From assembly GCA_035506175.1 (NCBI GenBank), contig DATJPZ010000103.1, forward strand, positions 16,579 through 80,578: a DNA stretch of 64,000 nucleotides. Reading direction: 5' to 3'. This document shows, in pieces, positions 10,965-18,680 of this stretch; within the stretch, counting starts at the first letter, position 1, and each line of letters begins with the position of its first letter. The stretch is from Thermoanaerobaculia bacterium. GTDB lineage: Bacteria; Acidobacteriota; Thermoanaerobaculia; UBA5066; Gp7-AA6. A program made the position numbers and the translations under genes. The notes below the pieces were generated by a model. That model was not told the DNA's origin, did not search any database, and was given only the letters and a program-made list of their open reading frames with translations.

Positions 10965-11623
10965 CCCGTCGAGCGGCCGCGGCTCTCGCCGCCGGGATCC
11001 TTCTCGCCTCGGCCGCCCGAGCGCAGGAGAGCCCGATCGACATCGCGATCCGCATGGCCGAGGCCCTCGCGAAGACCGCCGCGGCGAATCCCCCGGCGCC
11101 GCCGCTGACGCCGACGCCGCTGCCCTTCAAGGAGCCGAAGCCGCTCGAGGTCCTGCCGGACTGGTCCTCGGTCGACGCGATCGTGACCGCGCTCTACGCG
11201 TCGGTCAGCCACGGCCCGGACTACGAGCCCAACTGGACCCGGCTGCGGGGGCTCTTTCTGCCGCAGGCCATCGTCGTGCCGCCGAAGCCTCCCGACGCCG
11301 AGGCCTTCACCGTCCTCGACGGCGAACAGTTCGAGGCGCGCGTCCGCCGCTACATCGCGAGCCGACGCGAGCGCCACGAGCGCCTCGGATTCACCGAGCG
11401 GGAAATCGCGCGCCGCGAGCGCTGCTTCGGACACGTGTGTCAGGTTTTCTCGACTTACGAGACGCTCTACGCGCCGCGCGATCCGCAGCCGTTCACGCGG
11501 GGCGTCCACTCGATCCAGCTCGTCGACGACGGCCGCCGCTGGTGGATCGCCGCGCTCGTCTGGGACGTCGAGCGCCCCGACAAGCCCATCCCTCGCGCCC
11601 TGCTGCCGACTGAAATACGATGA
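10961..11623 (+). CDS. Secreted NTF2-like (DUF4440-like) protein, paralog A
   Basis: TTG start overlapping the DoxX stop. Signal peptide. Shares CFGxVCQVFSTYE and SIQLVxDGxRWWIA blocks with the next gene. Confidence 0.55.
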   Translation: MTRRAAAALAAGILLASAARAQESPIDIAIRMAEALAKTAAANPPAPPLTPTPLPFKEPKPLEVLPDWSSVDAIVTALYASVSHGPDYEPNWTRLRGLFLPQAIVVPPKPPDAEAFTVLDGEQFEARVRRYIASRRERHERLGFTEREIARRERCFGHVCQVFSTYETLYAPRDPQPFTRGVHSIQLVDDGRRWWIAALVWDVERPDKPIPRALLPTEIR

Positions 11624-11657: not shown

Positions 11658-12386
11658 ATGAAGAAGCTCTCGTCCACCGCCGGCGCGGCGCTCCTGGTTG
11701 CCGCCGCGTGGCCTCTGTCCGCGCAGGTGATGAACCAGCCGACGCCGCCGCCCGTCAGGAGCACCCTCGGCGTCACGCCCGGGGTGAAGCTGCACGACCC
11801 CAATGCCGAGGCCGAGGCCATGCGGATGCCGACGCCCGGCGGCCCGGTGGACCACCGGCCGGCCGCGCCACGCTCGGCCGCTCATCCCTCCGACAACGAC
11901 GGCGCTTCCGTGGACTCGATCCTCGCCGCCCTGTACGCGTCCGTCTCGCACGACGAGGCGTCGACGCCGAACTGGGAGCGGATGCGGAACATGTTCCTGC
12001 AGGTCGGCATGCTGATCCCGCCGAAGAACCCGAAGAGCGAGCTCTTCACGGTCCTCGACGTCGACGGCTTCGAGGAGCGCGTCAAGCAGGGCATCGCCTC
12101 GACGAAGGCCAAGGGAGACCCGACGTCGTTCTTCGAGAAGGAGATCGCCCGCCGGACCGACTGTTTCGGAAACGTCTGCCAGGTTTTCTCGACCTACGAG
12201 TCGCGCCGCGCGCCCTCCGACGAGAAGCCGTTCGTCCGCGGCATCAACAGCATCCAGCTCGTCAACGACGGGCACCGCTGGTGGATCGCGTCGGTGGCCT
12301 GGGACCAGGAGCGGCCGGACAACCCGATCCCGCCGCAGTACCTGCCGAACAACCCGTTGCCCGCGGAGTACCTGAAGAAAAACTGA
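11658..12386 (+). CDS. Secreted NTF2-like (DUF4440-like) protein, paralog B
   Basis: AGGAG upstream of the ATG. Signal peptide MKKLSSTAGAALLVAAAWPLSA. Clear paralog of 10961-11623. Confidence 0.7.
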   Translation: MKKLSSTAGAALLVAAAWPLSAQVMNQPTPPPVRSTLGVTPGVKLHDPNAEAEAMRMPTPGGPVDHRPAAPRSAAHPSDNDGASVDSILAALYASVSHDEASTPNWERMRNMFLQVGMLIPPKNPKSELFTVLDVDGFEERVKQGIASTKAKGDPTSFFEKEIARRTDCFGNVCQVFSTYESRRAPSDEKPFVRGINSIQLVNDGHRWWIASVAWDQERPDNPIPPQYLPNNPLPAEYLKKN

Positions 12387-13562: not shown

Positions 13563-14462
13563 CTACGGGGAAAGGCCCGGCTCGTACTCGTCGACGAACT
13601 CGAGAAACCGGCTGACCTCGACCATGTCCTTGCCCTTGAACCGGATCGCGTGCGCGTCCGTCCGCTCGACGATCGGCAGGTACGCGAGGACTTCGGCCGG
13701 CCGGTAGTTCTTGAAGCGCAGGTCGAGCGTCACCGGCGTCGTCACGACGAAGGGCTTGCGCGCGCGCCGCTCGGCGATCGCCCGCCGGGCGGCCTCGCGA
13801 ATGACGTCGCACGAGGCCTCGGGCGTCAGCGTCCGCGCCGAGTGAAAGCCGTAGTTCCATTTGACCGTCGCGGTCGAAAGCGGGCCGAGCAGCGCCGTCG
13901 CTTCCTTCACGATCGCGTCGTCGCCGGTCAGGAGCACGACCGGCACGCCGAAGCTGCCGGCGATCGCCGCGTTCAACCCCGCCTCGGGCATCGACACGCC
14001 GTTCAAGCGCAGATCCGCCAGATGCGCGGAGGACATCGTGTGGGCGCGGACGCCTTCCGGATTCGTCGTCGAGGCGTGGTAGCCGACGAACATCACGGCG
14101 TCGAAGGTGGCGTCGATGCCCTGCATCATCGCCAGCGGCCGCGGCCACGAGCGGACGATCTGGACGTCCTTCGGAAAACGCTCGATCAGGAGGTTCTCGC
14201 CGTTGCCGTGCGAGTCGGACACCAGGAACTCCGTCGCGCCCGCCGCCCGAGCGCCCTCGATCGCCGCGAGGGCCTCGTTGGTCATGAACCCGCGGAAGCG
14301 CTCGTACTCGAAGCCGGGCGGGCCCAGCTGGTCTCCCGTCACGACGCCGGCGACGCCTTCCATGTCGACCGAGACGTAGACCTTCAGCTTCGGCTGCGCG
14401 GCGGCCGCCCGGGAAACCGCGGCCGCGAGAGCGGCGGCGAGAACGAGCCGGCGGAGCGTCAT
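13563..14462 (-). CDS. D-aminopeptidase DppA-like (peptidase M55)
   Basis: Signal peptide, then KVYVSVDMEGVAGV...SDSHGNG...FVGYHA, which are hallmark M55 blocks. Confidence 0.8.
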   Translation of the reverse strand: MTLRRLVLAAALAAAVSRAAAAQPKLKVYVSVDMEGVAGVVTGDQLGPPGFEYERFRGFMTNEALAAIEGARAAGATEFLVSDSHGNGENLLIERFPKDVQIVRSWPRPLAMMQGIDATFDAVMFVGYHASTTNPEGVRAHTMSSAHLADLRLNGVSMPEAGLNAAIAGSFGVPVVLLTGDDAIVKEATALLGPLSTATVKWNYGFHSARTLTPEASCDVIREAARRAIAERRARKPFVVTTPVTLDLRFKNYRPAEVLAYLPIVERTDAHAIRFKGKDMVEVSRFLEFVDEYEPGLSP

Positions 14463-14478: not shown

Positions 14479-15249
14479 TCAGCCGACCGTCGGCGTCGGC
14501 GAGAGCTCCTCCGACGGCGAGCGCTTCTTCGGCTGGGGCATCACGAACCGCGAATCGTCGATCGGGACGTTCAGCTCGATCCTGTCGAATTTCAGCGACT
14601 GCGCCTGTCCGCCGCCGCTCGACGTGGCGGTGAAGGAGTGGGGCAGGACGAGCTCCCCCACCTTCCGGTAGTCCCCCACCTCGGACCGGATCTCGAGCTC
14701 GACGCCGCCGATCTTCTTCTTCGTGACCGTGACCGACTGCAGGAACGTCTTCGGGTCGAGATACACGAAGCGCACCTCGCCGGACTTCAGCGTGACCTTC
14801 AGCTTCCAGTCCTCGGTCCGGAAATCCGCGTCGTGGCCGAGCAGCTCCACCTTGCTCCCCTTCTGCTTGTAGTCGACGAGCGGCCCGTCGAGGTCGGCCT
14901 GCTGTTCGGCCTCGGCGCTCTCTTCGGCCGACATGGGCTCGGGCTCGGTCTGGCCCGCGAACGGAATCCACATCCAGCCGGCCTTGCCGTCGAAGGCCTG
15001 GACGGCCGTCTGCCCGTCCACCCGGAACTCCCAGCGGCTCTTGTTCGGGCGCTTCAGCTCCAGGACCGACGGCATCGACTCGTCGCCGCCCGTCATCGTC
15101 CCCGTCAGGCGCATCGTCTGGACGGCCTTGAGGTTTTCGAGTCCCCCGCGCGCCTCGATGTTCTTCGCGATCAGCTCGTCGGCGGTCTCCCCGGCGGCCA
15201 GAGCCGCCGCGGCGAACAATCCCGCCGCCGCCAATCCCCGGATCCCCAT
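14479..15249 (-). CDS. Outer-membrane lipoprotein-sorting (LolA-like) protein
   Basis: Signal peptide. ADELIAKNIEARGGLENLKAVQTMRLTG... is typical of LolA-like 'outer membrane lipoprotein-sorting protein' families. Confidence 0.6.
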   Translation of the reverse strand: MGIRGLAAAGLFAAAALAAGETADELIAKNIEARGGLENLKAVQTMRLTGTMTGGDESMPSVLELKRPNKSRWEFRVDGQTAVQAFDGKAGWMWIPFAGQTEPEPMSAEESAEAEQQADLDGPLVDYKQKGSKVELLGHDADFRTEDWKLKVTLKSGEVRFVYLDPKTFLQSVTVTKKKIGGVELEIRSEVGDYRKVGELVLPHSFTATSSGGGQAQSLKFDRIELNVPIDDSRFVMPQPKKRSPSEELSPTPTVG

Positions 15250-15349
15250 GTCGCCTCCTCGGTCCTCCGTCGGGCGGGACTCTACCGCAGCCGACCTCGC
15301 CGGCCGGGTGTATAAGAGGCCCCACCAGGACGCGCCAAGGAGGTCTCTC

Positions 15350-15634
15350 GTGGACTACAAACCGGCGCCGCGCGACACCTCGAGCGTCCGATTGCCGCGT
15401 GATCTCGCCGAGTTGACCGAGCTCCTCGCCCGCAACACGCACGAAAACTGGGCGCGCCGCCGCATGGACGAGGGCTGGACCTGGGGCCCCGAGCGCGACG
15501 ATTCACGGAAGAAGCACCCGTCGCTCGTCCCCTACGAGCGGCTGTCGGAGTCGGAGAAGGACTACGACCGCACGACCGCGATGGAGACCGTCAAGACGAT
15601 CCTCGCGCTCGGCTACCGGATCGAAAAGCGATGA
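15350..15634 (+). CDS. Stand-alone RyR-domain protein (94 aa)
   Basis: AAGGAGG 6 nt upstream of GTG 15350. LARNTHENWARRRMDEGWTWGPERDDSRKKHPSLVPYERLSESEKDYDR matches the RyR repeat pattern. Confidence 0.75.
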   Translation: MDYKPAPRDTSSVRLPRDLAELTELLARNTHENWARRRMDEGWTWGPERDDSRKKHPSLVPYERLSESEKDYDRTTAMETVKTILALGYRIEKR

Positions 15635-16641
15635 GCGACGCGACGGGCGCCGTCAACGCGGCTTACGACGAAGCGGAGCGCCACGCCTCCCGGTTCCGCC
15701 GCCTCCACATGATCGTCACGTCGATCGCCGTGGTGCTTGGCACCGTCGCTTTGATCATCGCTCTGGCAGGCCTGTCGTTTCCGCCTCCGCCTTCTCCCCC
15801 GCACGGGCCGCCGACGACGATTCCAGAAGCCCCTGCCGCGGACGGCATCTGGCCGACGACGGAATTTGCGCTGGCCCTGGGCTCCGCCTTCCTGGTGGCC
15901 CTCGGGATCGCGACCCGGCTGCAGAAGCGCTGGCTCTTGTATCGATACAAGGCCGAGCGCTACCGCAGCCTCCGCTTCAACGTCACGATCCAGCCGGCCG
16001 TCTGGATCGCCGAGAAGCCCTCGACGAATCCCGCGGAACACCTCACCCGAAAGGAGCTCGACGAAGTCGAACTGCTCGGGCTGGACGATCTGACGGCGAT
16101 CGCGGAATCGGAGGAGCCTCTGGTGATTCCGGACCCCGCCGAATGCGCGAAGGTCGATCCCGCCTGTCTGCCGCCGCTCATCGCGGACTACCTGAAGAAT
16201 CGCCTCAACCCTCAGATCGAGTACCTCGGCAAGCTGAGCAAGCGTCAGGAGAACCTCTGGCTTCCGGGCTCCTCGCTCGCTCCGTTCGCGTTCTTCGTCA
16301 GCGTCGTGTTCGTCGTCCTGCATTACGTCGCCGAGAGCCGCTGGTTTCTGTTCCTGTCGGCGGCGCTGCCGGTGGTCTGGGCCGGCTACCGCACCTGGCG
16401 AAGCGCCAACGAGCAGGAGCGCAACGCCTCGCGGTCGAAGGCCAAGCTCGCCGTCCTTCTGGCGCGCGCGGCGACGCTCGATCGGTGCGCGGACGAGGCG
16501 GACCCGTCGAAATCTCCGGCTGTCACGCGGCGCCCCGACCCCTTCCTCGTCTTCAGCACGCTCGCGATGGCCGAGAATCTGCTGCGCAACGAGCTCCAGG
16601 AATGGCTCAGGCTCATGCTGCCCACCGAGTGGTTCTCGTAA
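15631..16641 (+). CDS. Four-TM membrane protein with two SLATT/DUF4231-like 2TM modules
   Basis: ATGA overlap with the RyR gene. There are two hydrophobic hairpins (LHMIVTSIAVVLGTVALIIALAGL / FALALGSAFLVALGIATRL, and LAPFAFFVSVVFVVLHYV / FLFLSAALPVVWAGY). Each is followed by a charged helix (QKRWLLYRYKAERYRSLRF; RTWRSANEQERNASRSKAKL). Confidence 0.6.
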   Translation: MSDATGAVNAAYDEAERHASRFRRLHMIVTSIAVVLGTVALIIALAGLSFPPPPSPPHGPPTTIPEAPAADGIWPTTEFALALGSAFLVALGIATRLQKRWLLYRYKAERYRSLRFNVTIQPAVWIAEKPSTNPAEHLTRKELDEVELLGLDDLTAIAESEEPLVIPDPAECAKVDPACLPPLIADYLKNRLNPQIEYLGKLSKRQENLWLPGSSLAPFAFFVSVVFVVLHYVAESRWFLFLSAALPVVWAGYRTWRSANEQERNASRSKAKLAVLLARAATLDRCADEADPSKSPAVTRRPDPFLVFSTLAMAENLLRNELQEWLRLMLPTEWFS

Positions 16642-16656: not shown

Positions 16657-17592
16657 ATGGCCGACGTCTTCATCAGCTACGCCCACGCCGACGCGGCGAT
16701 CGCGGCGGCCGTGGCCCACGGCCTCGAGGAGCGCGGCTACACGACCTGGCGCTACGAAGAGAAGAGCCGTCTCGGCGGGTCGTACCTCGAGCGCATCGGA
16801 CGCGAGATCCGGTCCTGCCGCGCGGCGCTCTTCGTGATCTCGCACGCCTCGCTCGCCTCGCCGCAGTGCAAGGGAGAGCTCGTCCGGGCGCACGAGCTCG
16901 ACAAGCCGCTCCTCCCGATGCGACGCGACATTTCCCACGAGGATCTGCTGCGCCTGAGCGACGACTGGGCGATGGCGTTGAAGGGCGCCGTCACGGCCGA
17001 CATCACCGACGCGACCGCGGCGGCCATGGCCGACGAGGCCGTCGCGGTGCTTCGCGAGCAGAACATCGAGCCCCTCGGCGGAGGTCCGCCGCCCGCGGCC
17101 TCGCCGCTCAAGCGCCTCTCGCGGGGCGCGGTGCACGGGCTGCCGCCAAAGGACCTGCCGCTCGGCGCGATGGTCGCCGGCATCGTCGGCGTCCTCGGCG
17201 TCCCCTACACGCTCTACCACTTCGGCCACGCCCTCTGGCCGGGCCAGGATCCCGAGGGCTGGGTCCTGACGCACTTCCACGGGTTCCGCACCGCGACGAT
17301 CCTCGCCAACTTCGTCGGAATCATCCAGAACGGCCTGCTCGTCCGCGGCGCCATGCTCGCGCATCGCGGCGACCCGAAGGGCGGGCCGCTGCTGCGCACG
17401 GTCTCGAAGACCATGCTCATCGCGATCGGCCTCTGGTTTCTCGTCTGCCTGTTCTCCTTCTCGGGACGCAACGTCCCGCCGGGGCTGGTGAGCGGCGCCT
17501 TCAACGCCGCGCTCGTGGCGGCCGTTCCCTCGGCGGCGATTTTCGCGCTCTACCGCAAGAGCGGGCAGGCGCCCGCCCCCGCGAACCCGTGA
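16657..17592 (+). CDS. TIR domain protein fused to a C-terminal four-helix membrane domain
   Basis: GAGGAG upstream. MADVFISYAHADAAIA...RSCRAALFVISHASLASPQCKGELVRAHE forms the TIR core with a candidate catalytic Glu. Four hydrophobic helices follow in the C-terminal half. Confidence 0.85.
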   Translation: MADVFISYAHADAAIAAAVAHGLEERGYTTWRYEEKSRLGGSYLERIGREIRSCRAALFVISHASLASPQCKGELVRAHELDKPLLPMRRDISHEDLLRLSDDWAMALKGAVTADITDATAAAMADEAVAVLREQNIEPLGGGPPPAASPLKRLSRGAVHGLPPKDLPLGAMVAGIVGVLGVPYTLYHFGHALWPGQDPEGWVLTHFHGFRTATILANFVGIIQNGLLVRGAMLAHRGDPKGGPLLRTVSKTMLIAIGLWFLVCLFSFSGRNVPPGLVSGAFNAALVAAVPSAAIFALYRKSGQAPAPANP

Positions 17593-18680
17593 CGGACGTC
17601 GACGCCCTCCCCACGCCCGCCGTCGTCGTGGACCTCGACGTCCTCGAGCGCAACGTCGCGCGGATGCAGGAACGCGCGAGCCGTTCGGGCGTGAAGCTGC
17701 GCCCCCACGCGAAGACGCACAAGTCGCCCGAGGTGGCGCGCCTGCAGCGCTCCGCCGGCGCGAGCGGGCTCACCCTCGCGAAGACCTCGGAGGCGGAGGT
17801 GTTCGCCGACCTCGGCTTCGACGACATCTTCCTCGCGTACCCCGTCGTCGGCGACGACAAGGCCCGGCGCCTGCTGAAGCTCGCCGATCGCGTGCGTCTC
17901 GCCGTCGGCGTCGACAGCCTCGACGGCGCCCGCTCGCTCGGCGGCGCGTTCGCCCGCGCGGGCCGGACGCTCTCCGTGCGCCTCGAGATCGACCCCGGCT
18001 TCCACCGCTCGGGCGTCCTGCCCGAGGACACCGTCGCGCTCGCGCGCGCGGTGGCCGACGTGCCGGGCCTCGAGCTCTCCGCGATCTTCACGCACGCGGG
18101 CCAGGGCTACGCGGCGACGACTCCCGAAGAAGTCGCGCGCGTCGGCGCCGAGGAGGCGCGCCTCGCGGTCGAAACGGCCGAAGCCCTGCGCGCGGCCGGC
18201 CTGCCGATCGCCGAGGTCTCCGTCGGTTCGACGCCCACCGCCGTGGCGGCGATGTCGGGCGCCGGCGTCACCGAGTGCCGTCCGGGAACCTACGTCTTCA
18301 ACGACCGCTCGCAGGTCGCCCTCGGAAGCGCGGCGCCGGAAGACTGCGCCCTGACCGTCATCGCGACCGTCGTCAGCGCTCCGGCCGCCGACCGCGCCGT
18401 CGTCGACGCGGGCTCGAAGACGCTGTCCTCGGACGCCAGCCGCCCGACCGCGGACGGCTACGGGCTCGTCGTGGGGCGACAAACGCGGATCGCCCGCGTC
18501 TCGGAGGAGCACGGCGTCCTCGCGGTCGCGCCCGGCGAGCGATTCCGGGTCGGCGAGCGCGTCCGCCTGCTGCCCAACCATGCCTGCGCCGTCGTCAACC
18601 TGCACGACGCGCTGGTGGCGGTGCGGGGCGGGCGCGTCGAGGGCCGGCTCACCGTCGCCGCGCGCGGCCGCGTCCAGTAG
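17589..18680 (+). CDS. D-threonine aldolase / D-serine dehydratase-like PLP enzyme (alanine racemase N-terminal fold, DSD1 family)
   Basis: GTGA overlap with the TIR stop. LPTPAVVVDLDVLERNVARMQ...KLRPHAKTHK (PLP lysine) ...RPGTYVFND...LLPNHAC. Confidence 0.8.
   Translation: MTDVDALPTPAVVVDLDVLERNVARMQERASRSGVKLRPHAKTHKSPEVARLQRSAGASGLTLAKTSEAEVFADLGFDDIFLAYPVVGDDKARRLLKLADRVRLAVGVDSLDGARSLGGAFARAGRTLSVRLEIDPGFHRSGVLPEDTVALARAVADVPGLELSAIFTHAGQGYAATTPEEVARVGAEEARLAVETAEALRAAGLPIAEVSVGSTPTAVAAMSGAGVTECRPGTYVFNDRSQVALGSAAPEDCALTVIATVVSAPAADRAVVDAGSKTLSSDASRPTADGYGLVVGRQTRIARVSEEHGVLAVAPGERFRVGERVRLLPNHACAVVNLHDALVAVRGGRVEGRLTVAARGRVQ

Follow-up and report, generated by a model that had tools for sequence, protein, structure and literature searches.

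Cyclic ADP-ribose (cADPR) signals derived from TIR domains are common to bacterial, plant, and animal immunity, and whether cADPR acts directly on the repeats of ryanodine receptors (RyR) has long been debated in animal physiology. Here we describe a cassette of three genes in a 64,000-nt stretch of DNA from a Thermoanaerobaculia metagenome-assembled genome (MAG; assembly GCA_035506175.1, contig DATJPZ010000103.1; the whole stretch is called the window hereafter). The cassette encodes, in this order, an RyR-repeat protein of 94 amino acids (aa), a tandem SLATT-like membrane protein, and a TIR protein with four predicted transmembrane (TM) helices, designated TIR-4TM.

Several described systems are related to parts of this cassette. 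Type VII Thoeris consists of a TIR protein, ThsB, and a SLATT effector, ThsH, and uses canonical cADPR as the signal (bioRxiv 10.64898/2025.12.03.692087). The same work lists "TIR + SLOG and 4TM" operons as unverified candidates, two tested examples of which showed no defense in E. coli, and neither RyR nor PF02026 appears in its text or in the accessible part of its tables. SLATT proteins are predicted to be pores regulated by ADP-ribose (ADPR) derivatives, and surveys note TIR-SLATT neighborhoods without mention of RyR (PMC9503650). Phage RyR-domain proteins, termed RyDEP, either have nanomolar affinity for 2'/3'cADPR or cleave it, with H75, W78, H100, and D117 as key residues, and conserved homologs can be sponges rather than enzymes; SLATT is unmentioned in that paper (PMC13232231). 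A host-encoded RyR/SLATT/TIR trio and the four-helix (4-TM) domain described below were not found in the searchable literature.

The RyR/SLATT/TIR trio in comparison with described systems

We consider it about an even chance (probability roughly 0.5) that TIR-4TM is the signal-generating enzyme of a three-gene, membrane-centered, Thoeris-like module. Within the Thoeris-like TIR-SLATT systems, the cassette is new in its membrane-embedded TIR and in having an RyR protein of the host as the third component; the sequence-only reading of the window, which treated TIR-4TM as a stand-alone effector, had overlooked the trio. The genes and the parts of TIR-4TM are as follows.

15350 to 15634, forward strand: gene 1, RyR-repeat protein (single repeat, R12-type), 94 aa, GTG start; assigned by Pfam RyR
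15631 to 16641, forward strand: gene 2, tandem SLATT-like membrane protein, 336 aa, 2+2 TM helices, C-terminal motif EWLRLMxxxEW; assigned by DUF4231/SLATT profiles
16657 to 17592, forward strand: gene 3, TIR-4TM, 311 aa, ATG start 15 nt past the SLATT stop codon, with GGGCGAGGAG directly upstream
16657 to 17058, forward strand: TIR domain, aa 1–134, from the TIR_2 match, the secondary structure of the AlphaFold2 (AF2) model, and Foldseek
16876 to 16878, forward strand: codon of E74, the predicted catalytic Glu (motif S-P-Q-C-K-G-E-L), from profile alignment
17059 to 17154, forward strand: Pro/Gly/Arg-rich linker, aa 135–166, predicted to be disordered (from model confidence) and cytoplasmic
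17155 to 17565, forward strand: four-helix membrane domain, aa 167–303, from the Kyte-Doolittle profile, AF2, and conserved columns

Thoeris loci in general pair a TIR gene with the gene of a signal-activated effector, and the TIR gene of the cassette likewise shares its operon with one that encodes a SLATT-family membrane protein. It shares with type VII Thoeris the presence of a SLATT membrane effector and the expected logic, in which an ADPR-derived signal made by the TIR protein would act on a SLATT pore. In contrast to the two-gene layout of ThsB and ThsH, three genes are present here, with RyR translationally coupled to SLATT. The TIR protein is a predicted integral membrane protein of the AbTir-like TIR_2 clade, whereas no membrane location is reported for the ThsB proteins described so far; the SLATT protein is tandem (2x2 TM), and the cassette lies outside a defense island. 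With regard to the last point, the flanks are housekeeping, yet close relatives differ in whether they carry the cassette at this one site. The "TIR + SLOG and 4TM" operons also bear a likeness, since the tandem SLATT protein (4 TM) is homologous to a weakly SLOG-like-fused protein, P0040 (see below); in the cassette, however, putative ligand binding falls to RyR as a protein of its own and not to a fused SLOG domain. The effectors of CBASS and Pycsar similarly combine TIR and TM helices in nucleotide-signaling immunity, but neither a cyclase nor a cyclic-nucleotide sensor accompanies the TIR gene here.

The RyR gene is preceded by a Shine-Dalgarno sequence, AAGGAGG, at 15337–15343, 6 nt ahead of the GTG codon, and its stop codon overlaps the ATG codon of the SLATT gene (ATGA). 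This 4-nt overlap was kept in 8/8 loci examined. The RyR protein matched Pfam RyR (PF02026) with an E value of 6.6e-36 and PDB 3NRT, a "putative ryanodine receptor" of B. thetaiotaomicron, with an E value of 1e-33; it also strongly matched the repeats of animal RyR1/2/3, with approximately 40–45% identity by eye from the alignments. H31, W34, H56, and D73 are spaced exactly as the ligand-binding/catalytic residues H75, W78, H100, and D117 of phage RyDEP, and are invariant across all of the trio loci. Both are small, stand-alone, single-repeat RyR proteins with four residues (H, W, H, and D) at identical spacing. Unlike RyDEP, the RyR protein here is not phage-encoded but chromosomal; because it is host-encoded inside a TIR operon, it would act for the system, as a receptor or a threshold-setting buffer, and not against it. 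RyR genes are rare: among 7.3 Gb of plasmid sequence, no more than 2 records gave a match at E ≤ 1e-8, and in one of them the RyR gene lies ~1.4 kb from a TIR gene. Stand-alone RyR genes are also present in two human-gut "Bacteriophage sp." contigs (L168:4980–5282 and L169:4992–5285); their products have 97–100 aa and are 50–58% identical to the window RyR protein.

The product of gene 2 scored 25.4 bits against DUF4231 (cut-off 24.7) and matched NCBIfam SLATT_1 with an E value of 2e-5, under the cut-off of that model. In an alignment of 11 members of the SLATT family (alignment A2), SLATT_1 was matched by nine members and SLATT_3 by five. In addition, two distant relatives found with the family profile, P0040 and P0037, matched DUF4231/SLATT_3 followed by SLATT_1 above the Pfam thresholds. 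These matches of the relatives led us to assign the window protein, by profile, as a divergent tandem SLATT. Word-indexed searches found few relatives because the SLATT protein diverges fast, and the contigs of the distant relatives were mostly too short for their contexts to be informative. The window protein is without an N-terminal extension of ~50 aa, with a conserved DDDMHDP-like motif, that is present in most of the orthologs; a stop codon directly upstream excludes a longer reading frame. P0040 (L164:204–1895) is a 563-aa protein with an N-terminal Rossmann-like domain of ~270 aa (GITGHR...AEGADR...GGTAEIV), for which the only Pfam hint was a weak match to the SLOG-family model YAcAr (E = 0.12) and for which the PDB gave zero matches. 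It resembles the "SLOG and 4TM" effector of the unverified Thoeris candidate (bioRxiv 10.64898/2025.12.03.692087).

RyR and SLATT genes were found directly upstream of the TIR-4TM gene in all nine TIR-4TM loci with enough context (the window, L001–L005, L011, L083, and L165). The trio recurs in Planctomycete-type contigs (L010:2270–5960, L166:3432–7119, and L167:3432–7119), in which a TIR-TM-TPR gene is followed by RyR and then tandem SLATT genes, encoding proteins of 756–757, 99, and 372 aa, respectively. The TIR protein in these contigs combines a TIR domain of the same subfamily with a single TM helix, TPR repeats, and, at the C-terminus, two repeated domains. Both the gene order and the TIR architecture differ from those of the TIR-4TM loci, and the TIR protein is again membrane-anchored. 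The association of the three genes is therefore independently supported, because it is repeated with another order and another TIR protein.

To survey the chromosomal site, 80 metagenomic loci were fetched, anchored on the downstream gene for a D-serine-dehydratase-like (DSD-like) enzyme. The identities below are those of the DSD-like enzyme to the window copy.

L083: 94%, trio present
L005: 81%, trio present
L084: 75%, trio absent
L085: 73%, trio absent
L086: 72%, trio absent
L087: 72%, trio absent
L011: 71%, trio present
L001: 70%, trio present
L003: 69%, trio present
L004: 68%, trio present
L002: 66%, trio present

In the trio-less L084–L087, a peptidase M55 gene or a LolA-like gene directly abuts the DSD-like gene; in L084, a gap of ~120 nt joins the LolA-like and DSD-like genes. 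Since the trio is missing from the same site in these loci, the cassette is dispensable. It occupies one fixed chromosomal site in Thermoanaerobaculia, where the three genes have come or gone together. The identities among the Acidobacteria loci are 79–94% for RyR, 42–75% for TIR-4TM, and 28–41% for SLATT, with 66–94% for the flanking DSD-like enzyme. This contrast of rates fits a conserved small-ligand binder accompanied by fast-evolving, conflict-type membrane proteins.

The TIR and membrane halves of TIR-4TM

The window has a G+C content of ~70%, and long spurious (overlapping) open reading frames are common there. The reading frame 16657–17592 is a real gene, because it has a Pfam match, an identical database protein, and homologs conserved in both halves. 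The identical protein is present in public databases, annotated from a Thermoanaerobaculia MAG, and approximately 20 full-length homologs (300–317 aa, 42–75% identity) show conserved columns in both the TIR half and the membrane half. One further predicted protein, P0021 (176 aa), has both D-ser_dehydrat (PF14031) and TIR Pfam matches and shows 80% identity across 30% of the query; it probably stems from a gene call or a frameshift that crosses the junction of the TIR-4TM and DSD-like genes on a short contig. The full-length AF2 model of TIR-4TM, built on the family alignment, has a mean predicted local distance difference test score (pLDDT) of 82.8. The linker contains EPLGGGPPPAASPLKRL at aa 138–154, and the pLDDT is below 50 at aa 142–166.

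TIR_2 (PF13676) matched aa 4–96 with an E value of 4.8e-19 (69.5 bits; cut-off 28), and was matched by 19/19 family members. The TIR half in the AF2 model shows the flavodoxin-like order of strands and helices from βA to αE (βA-αA-βB-αB-βC-αC-βD-αD-βE-αE). A Foldseek search of the PDB returned almost exclusively TIR domains, led by NAD-cleaving ones: the best match was the 3AD-bound AbTir structure (7uxu; TM-score 0.72, normalized to the target), and SPARTA TIR-APAZ, SARM1, PdTIR, and BtpA were among the further top matches. AbTir, BtTir, and PdTIR (PDB 7uxu, 7uxr, and 3h16) are the best matches by both profile and structure. In the profile alignment of the family, E74 is aligned with the catalytic Glu of AbTir (W-T-N-Y-E-L), BtTir, and PdTIR, and the G-x-S region of the BB-loop is conserved in the comparison with these three proteins. 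E74 and Q70 are invariant in 19/19 family members. Q70 stands in place of the Trp that TIRs of the AbTir type carry four positions ahead of their catalytic Glu, and the closest TIR relatives of the family also carry Gln at this position (by eye). Other differences are that AbTir, BtTir, and PdTIR are soluble, with a coiled coil or no extra domain, whereas the TIR domain here is tethered to a 4-TM bundle. Computationally, the TIR domain is apparently catalytically intact, AbTir-like, and predicted to face the cytoplasm.

The closest relatives outside the family (L006–L009) belong to a TIR subfamily with the pattern MADVFISY...GYxTWxYE...VRAHE and have very different C-terminal modules. L006 has one TM helix together with PEGA and WD40 domains assigned by Pfam; the modules recognized by eye are an NB-ARC-like P-loop region in L007, an FGE-sulfatase/SUMF1-like domain in L008, and a receiver-like domain in L009. 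These fusions suggest a modular sensor-TIR family.

The Kyte-Doolittle profile shows four hydrophobic cores in the C-terminal half of TIR-4TM. In the AF2 model, these correspond to the helices TM1 (167–193), TM2 (208–236), TM3 (242–267), and TM4 (277–303), with a short helix (199–206) in the first outer loop. The membrane domain modeled alone is a compact, closed four-helix bundle (pLDDT 90.4, predicted TM-score 0.81). In 19 homologs, the three predicted cytoplasmic segments have ~10 Lys/Arg residues versus ~1.5 in the two outer loops, and the segment preceding TM1 (aa 140–168) averages 3.9. According to the positive-inside rule, this distribution supports an N-in/C-in topology with four passes and a cytoplasmic TIR domain. 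The conserved residues of the membrane domain are A174, G178, L180, G181, P195, F207, R211, N218, G221, N225, R237, R247, W260, P291, and R300. G178 and G181 are located in TM1, P195 and F207 in the outer loop, and R237 and R247 at the cytoplasmic turn, while a conserved polar stripe of R211, N218, and N225 runs along one face of TM2 with heptad spacing. Conserved Asn residues within the membrane are classically associated with the pairing of helices, which they drive.

Even at E ≤ 1, Pfam gave no match to the membrane half of any of the 19 members. When aa 146–311 were searched exhaustively with HMMER against 1.84 billion representative proteins, only eight proteins were returned, all of the same family or fragments, and a Foldseek search of the PDB with the isolated domain gave only generic four-helix bundles (best E = 0.19). 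These three outcomes rule out a known membrane module, and a cryptic tandem SLATT is ruled out by hhalign (probability 0.2%). As judged by these searches, the 4-TM half is a membrane domain private to the family, and TIR-4TM would define a new membrane domain family without detectable relatives.

The sequence-only reading had described TIR-4TM as a TIR domain, a Pro/Gly linker, and four hydrophobic segments, and had proposed a membrane-tethered NADase whose oligomerization is controlled in the bilayer. The anatomy was borne out by the Kyte-Doolittle profile and the AF2 layout, the four quoted segments falling at aa 167–187, 210–229, 253–268, and 281–299. The hydrophobicity, charge, and AF2 results agree that the protein is membrane-embedded, its C-terminal half being predicted as an integral four-helix bundle and not as a soluble domain. 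The NADase-like character of the TIR domain is in line with the fold matches to NAD-cleaving TIRs, and the catalytic Glu, the loss of which would have spoken against the proposal, is kept as the invariant E74 aligned with AbTir, BtTir, and PdTIR. The control of oligomerization in the bilayer is plausible and fits the polar stripe of TM2 (R211, N218, and N225) and G178/G181 of TM1, although this support is indirect and leaves that part of the proposal unproven.

A possible mechanism and its alternatives

The TIR domain of TIR-4TM is more likely to be a signal-making enzyme than a terminal effector, and the following mechanism may be envisaged. In the resting state, the 4-TM bundle would keep the cytoplasmic TIR domains apart or inactive. 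A trigger sensed in or at the membrane, possibly a perturbation of the envelope or membrane in phage attack, would shift the packing or the oligomeric state of the bundle, so that the TIR domains come together and form a composite active site. The active TIR would convert NAD+ to an ADPR-derived signal, probably a cADPR isomer, which would act on the RyR/SLATT pair. The SLATT protein would then open or oligomerize into a membrane pore, and permeabilization of the membrane would lead to growth arrest or abortive infection. RyR would be the nucleotide-binding component in this scheme, because every ligand-contacting residue of RyDEP is kept.

Two roles of RyR, either one or the other, can be considered. 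The slightly favored one is that of a receptor subunit gating SLATT; the other is that of a sponge or glycosidase encoded by the host, which would set the threshold for activation and return the system to rest, for which the ring nucleases in type III CRISPR are a parallel. The conserved translational coupling of RyR and SLATT (the 4-nt overlap in 8/8 loci) argues for the receptor, as do the STAND NTPase proteins of L012 and L078, in which RyR occupies a C-terminal position. The SLATT relative P0040 points in the same direction, since the place of RyR is taken there by a fused N-terminal domain of weakly SLOG-like character, and its architecture is resembled by the "TIR + SLOG and 4TM" operons of the Thoeris survey. 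In favor of the buffer, the only demonstrated activities of RyR-domain proteins are sequestration and cleavage (PMC13232231).

A bolder form of the receptor role, which we put forward only tentatively, is that RyR is the ligand-binding gate subunit of a tandem-SLATT pore and receives its ligand from the membrane TIR. In that case, the cassette would amount to a minimal pathway in prokaryotes from TIR through a cADPR-type signal and RyR to a channel, a bacterial counterpart and possibly an antecedent of the animal cADPR/RyR axis, and the 4-TM (or TM-TPR) TIR would be a sensor in the style of Toll-like receptors. The likeness to the animal axis lies in the RyR repeat and in the modulation of animal RyR channels by cADPR, but the channel partner here is SLATT, not an RyR-type channel. 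Toll-like receptors similarly have a cytoplasmic TIR joined via membrane helices to a non-cytoplasmic or membrane sensor, a likeness that is clearest in the TIR-TM-TPR proteins of L010 and L166; in contrast, the proteins described here have no leucine-rich-repeat ectodomain, and the TIR is probably enzymatic. An evolutionary link to Toll-like receptors or to the animal axis is speculative. The cassette unites a membrane-embedded TIR, an RyR repeat, and a pore-family protein in one small host operon. If our proposal is true, it would offer a genetically tractable three-gene system for the reading of an ADPR-derived ligand by an RyR repeat and for channel control. It could also show whether RyR proteins serve their hosts as receptors or quench the signal from within, and serve as a model for a TIR enzyme switched by a transmembrane domain, with a topology of the Toll-like-receptor type in bacteria.

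Several observations weigh against the assignment of TIR-4TM as the signal generator of a Thoeris-like module. The neighborhood is housekeeping and not a defense island, and the cassette appears to be mostly vertically inherited; the syntenic Acidobacteria trio loci by themselves count as one evolutionary event. RyR genes were found near TIR genes in 3/76 TIR-anchored loci versus 0/79 control loci, a difference that is not significant (one-sided p = 0.12). RyR genes also occur alone, with neither a SLATT nor a TIR neighbor, in L168 and L169, so the pairing of RyR with SLATT is lineage-specific, not universal, and one SLATT relative, L163, is without RyR directly upstream in the ~300 nt available on its short contig. 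The window SLATT protein is at or below the curated thresholds. PADLOC picked up only the generic TIR part of TIR-4TM, and the replacement of Trp with an invariant Gln four residues before the catalytic Glu could mean that the activity or the product differs. No significant similarity was observed between the window TIR and three type VII ThsB TIR domains listed in Table S1 of the Thoeris survey (blastp E of at least 1.4, profile E of at least 0.12). Membership in the type VII ThsB TIR clusters is ruled out as far as these three listed domains represent them, and the canonical-cADPR assignment is not transferable to the window TIR. Finally, the NADase or cyclase activity, the identity of the signal, ligand binding by RyR, and pore formation by SLATT are all inferences, and the trigger proposed above is a conjecture.

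Part of the same evidence can be read in other ways. TIR-4TM might be a self-contained, membrane-anchored, NAD+-depleting effector or toxin that becomes active on oligomerization of the 4-TM bundle, with RyR-SLATT separate or accessory, for example with RyR mopping up ADPR products. The intact catalytic Glu and NADase-like fold agree with this, as do the NAD+ consumption through which many bacterial TIRs (SPARTA, AbTir) mainly act, the similarity to effector-type TIR models in PADLOC (SAVED_TIR, E = 6.5e-8), and the polar stripe of TM2, which could drive oligomerization. We nevertheless regard it as unlikely. The co-occurrence with RyR and SLATT and their translational coupling are strict in every locus of the family, and the same trio recurs around a different TIR architecture; moreover, a TIR effector would leave no gene for an upstream signal generator or sensor in an operon that already has a pore-type effector. 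Of the stand-alone effector that the sequence-only reading had favored, the membrane TIR with an intact catalytic residue thus holds, while its independence is at odds with its position as the third gene of an operon, always together with RyR and SLATT. That reading had alternatively suggested that the 4-TM bundle itself is a membrane-disrupting effector, with the TIR domain as an assembly scaffold only. TIR domains do serve as oligomerization scaffolds in animal signaling, and TM2 has, along one face, conserved Asn and Arg that might form the lining of a polar path. This possibility appears very unlikely to us: a pure scaffold would need neither the invariant catalytic Glu nor the residues of the active-site region, the bundle is modeled as compact and closed with very high confidence, and the same TIR subfamily in L010 and L166 uses a single TM helix with TPR, which cannot be a pore. 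The dedicated pore-type partner, SLATT, a bona fide member of its family, is encoded in the same operon. The remark in the earlier reading that TIR-TM fusions usually adjoin a cyclase does not apply here, the partners being RyR and SLATT genes. No CD-NTase, Pycsar cyclase, SAVED domain, or cyclic-nucleotide-binding sensor was found in the operon or the syntenic flanks. A cyclase-linked effector of the CBASS/Pycsar kind is ruled out by the absence of a cyclase and by a match to the Pycsar TIR model that is below threshold (E = 0.013; 15.9 versus 24.7 bits).

The module may also serve a purpose other than defense, in which case it would be maintained at its fixed chromosomal position and co-transcribed with a D-amino-acid enzyme. 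Physiological membrane signaling in Thermoanaerobaculia, in which, for example, envelope stress or the redox/NAD state is converted to ion flux via an RyR-regulated SLATT channel, would account for the housekeeping flanks, which are conserved down to 44% TIR-4TM identity, and for the overlap of the TIR-4TM stop with the start of the downstream enzyme gene, with no terminator between them. It would likewise account for the empty outcome when viral contigs were scanned for relatives of the TIR-4TM family and for the fact that mobile-element genes were not seen beside the cassette. We consider it improbable, however, since the cassette is dispensable, L084–L087 being without the trio though their flanks are as similar to the window as those in trio-bearing lineages. 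The SLATT and TIR-4TM proteins evolve much faster than the flanking genes, the downstream overlap is not conserved, and every experimentally characterized prokaryotic or phage protein with TIR+SLATT or RyR domains in the cited papers (bioRxiv 10.64898/2025.12.03.692087 and PMC13232231) acts in phage-host conflict. A phage or prophage origin of the cassette is ruled out by the empty viral-contig scan together with the housekeeping flanks. Lastly, TIR-4TM and RyR-SLATT could be unrelated and share an ancestral position in one bacterial order by coincidence. All seven Acidobacteria-type loci are syntenic, so that their co-occurrence is a single phylogenetic event, and the enrichment of RyR near TIR genes lacks significance. 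We give this explanation very little credence, because the trio is found independently in the Planctomycete-type contigs with its other gene order and TIR architecture, a Dojkabacteria MAG and a Priestia plasmid each contain a further TIR/RyR neighborhood, and the three genes are lost together in L084–L087. In addition, published biochemistry ties TIR products both to RyR-domain proteins (PMC13232231) and to SLATT effectors (bioRxiv 10.64898/2025.12.03.692087).

Flanking genes and related neighborhoods

The features adjoining the cassette in the window are as follows.

14479 to 15249, reverse strand: LolA-like gene, divergent from RyR
15250 to 15349, no strand assigned: intergenic region between the divergent LolA-like and RyR genes, presumed promoter region of the operon
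17589 to 18680, forward strand: flanking Ala_racemase_N/D-ser_dehydrat-type (DSD-like) enzyme gene, outside the system, marking the downstream edge of the cassette

The cassette lies between a peptidase M55 gene (13563–14462, reverse strand) and the LolA-like gene on one side and the gene for the DSD/D-Thr-aldolase-like enzyme on the other. Peptidase M55 is the D-aminopeptidase DppA family. The cassette looks like an interruption of a D-amino-acid-related neighborhood, because the M55 or LolA-like gene and the DSD-like gene are adjacent in the trio-less relatives. The flanking genes are housekeeping genes, encoding peptidase M55, the LolA-like protein, the D-Ser-dehydratase-like enzyme, YceI, and a fatty-acid desaturase. 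A promoter scan showed no sigma-70 consensus site in 15250–15349, and a terminator scan no terminator-like site between the TIR-4TM and DSD-like genes, both scans being uninformative in a high-GC genome. In the window, the GTG start of the DSD-like gene overlaps the stop codon of TIR-4TM (GTGA), and the DSD-like gene is probably co-transcribed with the cassette; in L001 and L002, the overlap is replaced by gaps of 30–39 nt.

RyR domains were also observed in other settings. The TIR proteins of the Planctomycete-type trios, which accompany RyR genes, have a topology in the style of Toll-like receptors, with a cytoplasmic TIR domain and a large part predicted to be extracytoplasmic. In a Candidatus Dojkabacteria MAG (L012:1536–9676), the gene for a TIR-WD40 protein (939 aa) adjoins those for two multidomain RyR proteins, namely a STAND-type NTPase with RyR near the C-terminus (885 aa) and a fusion of TrkA_N (RCK/NAD-binding) with RyR (614 aa). 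L078 encodes an AAA_16/STAND protein of 1278 aa with RyR in its C-terminal part. On the Priestia aryabhattai plasmid NZ_CP128553.1 (L170:659–8868), a Pycsar effector, two hypothetical proteins, an adenylate/guanylate cyclase, and a 94-aa RyR protein are encoded in this order; the RyR protein is 55% identical to that of the window, and a 743-aa TIR protein is encoded convergently ~1.4 kb off. Small RyR proteins may accompany several kinds of nucleotide-signaling defense operons.

Elsewhere in the window, two adjacent paralogous genes of unknown function are located on the forward strand at 11100–11623 and 11658–12386. Their products have a common C-terminal region with the pattern …LYASVSH…FTVLD…CFGxVCQVFSTYE…SIQLVxDGxRWWI…WDxERPDxPIP.

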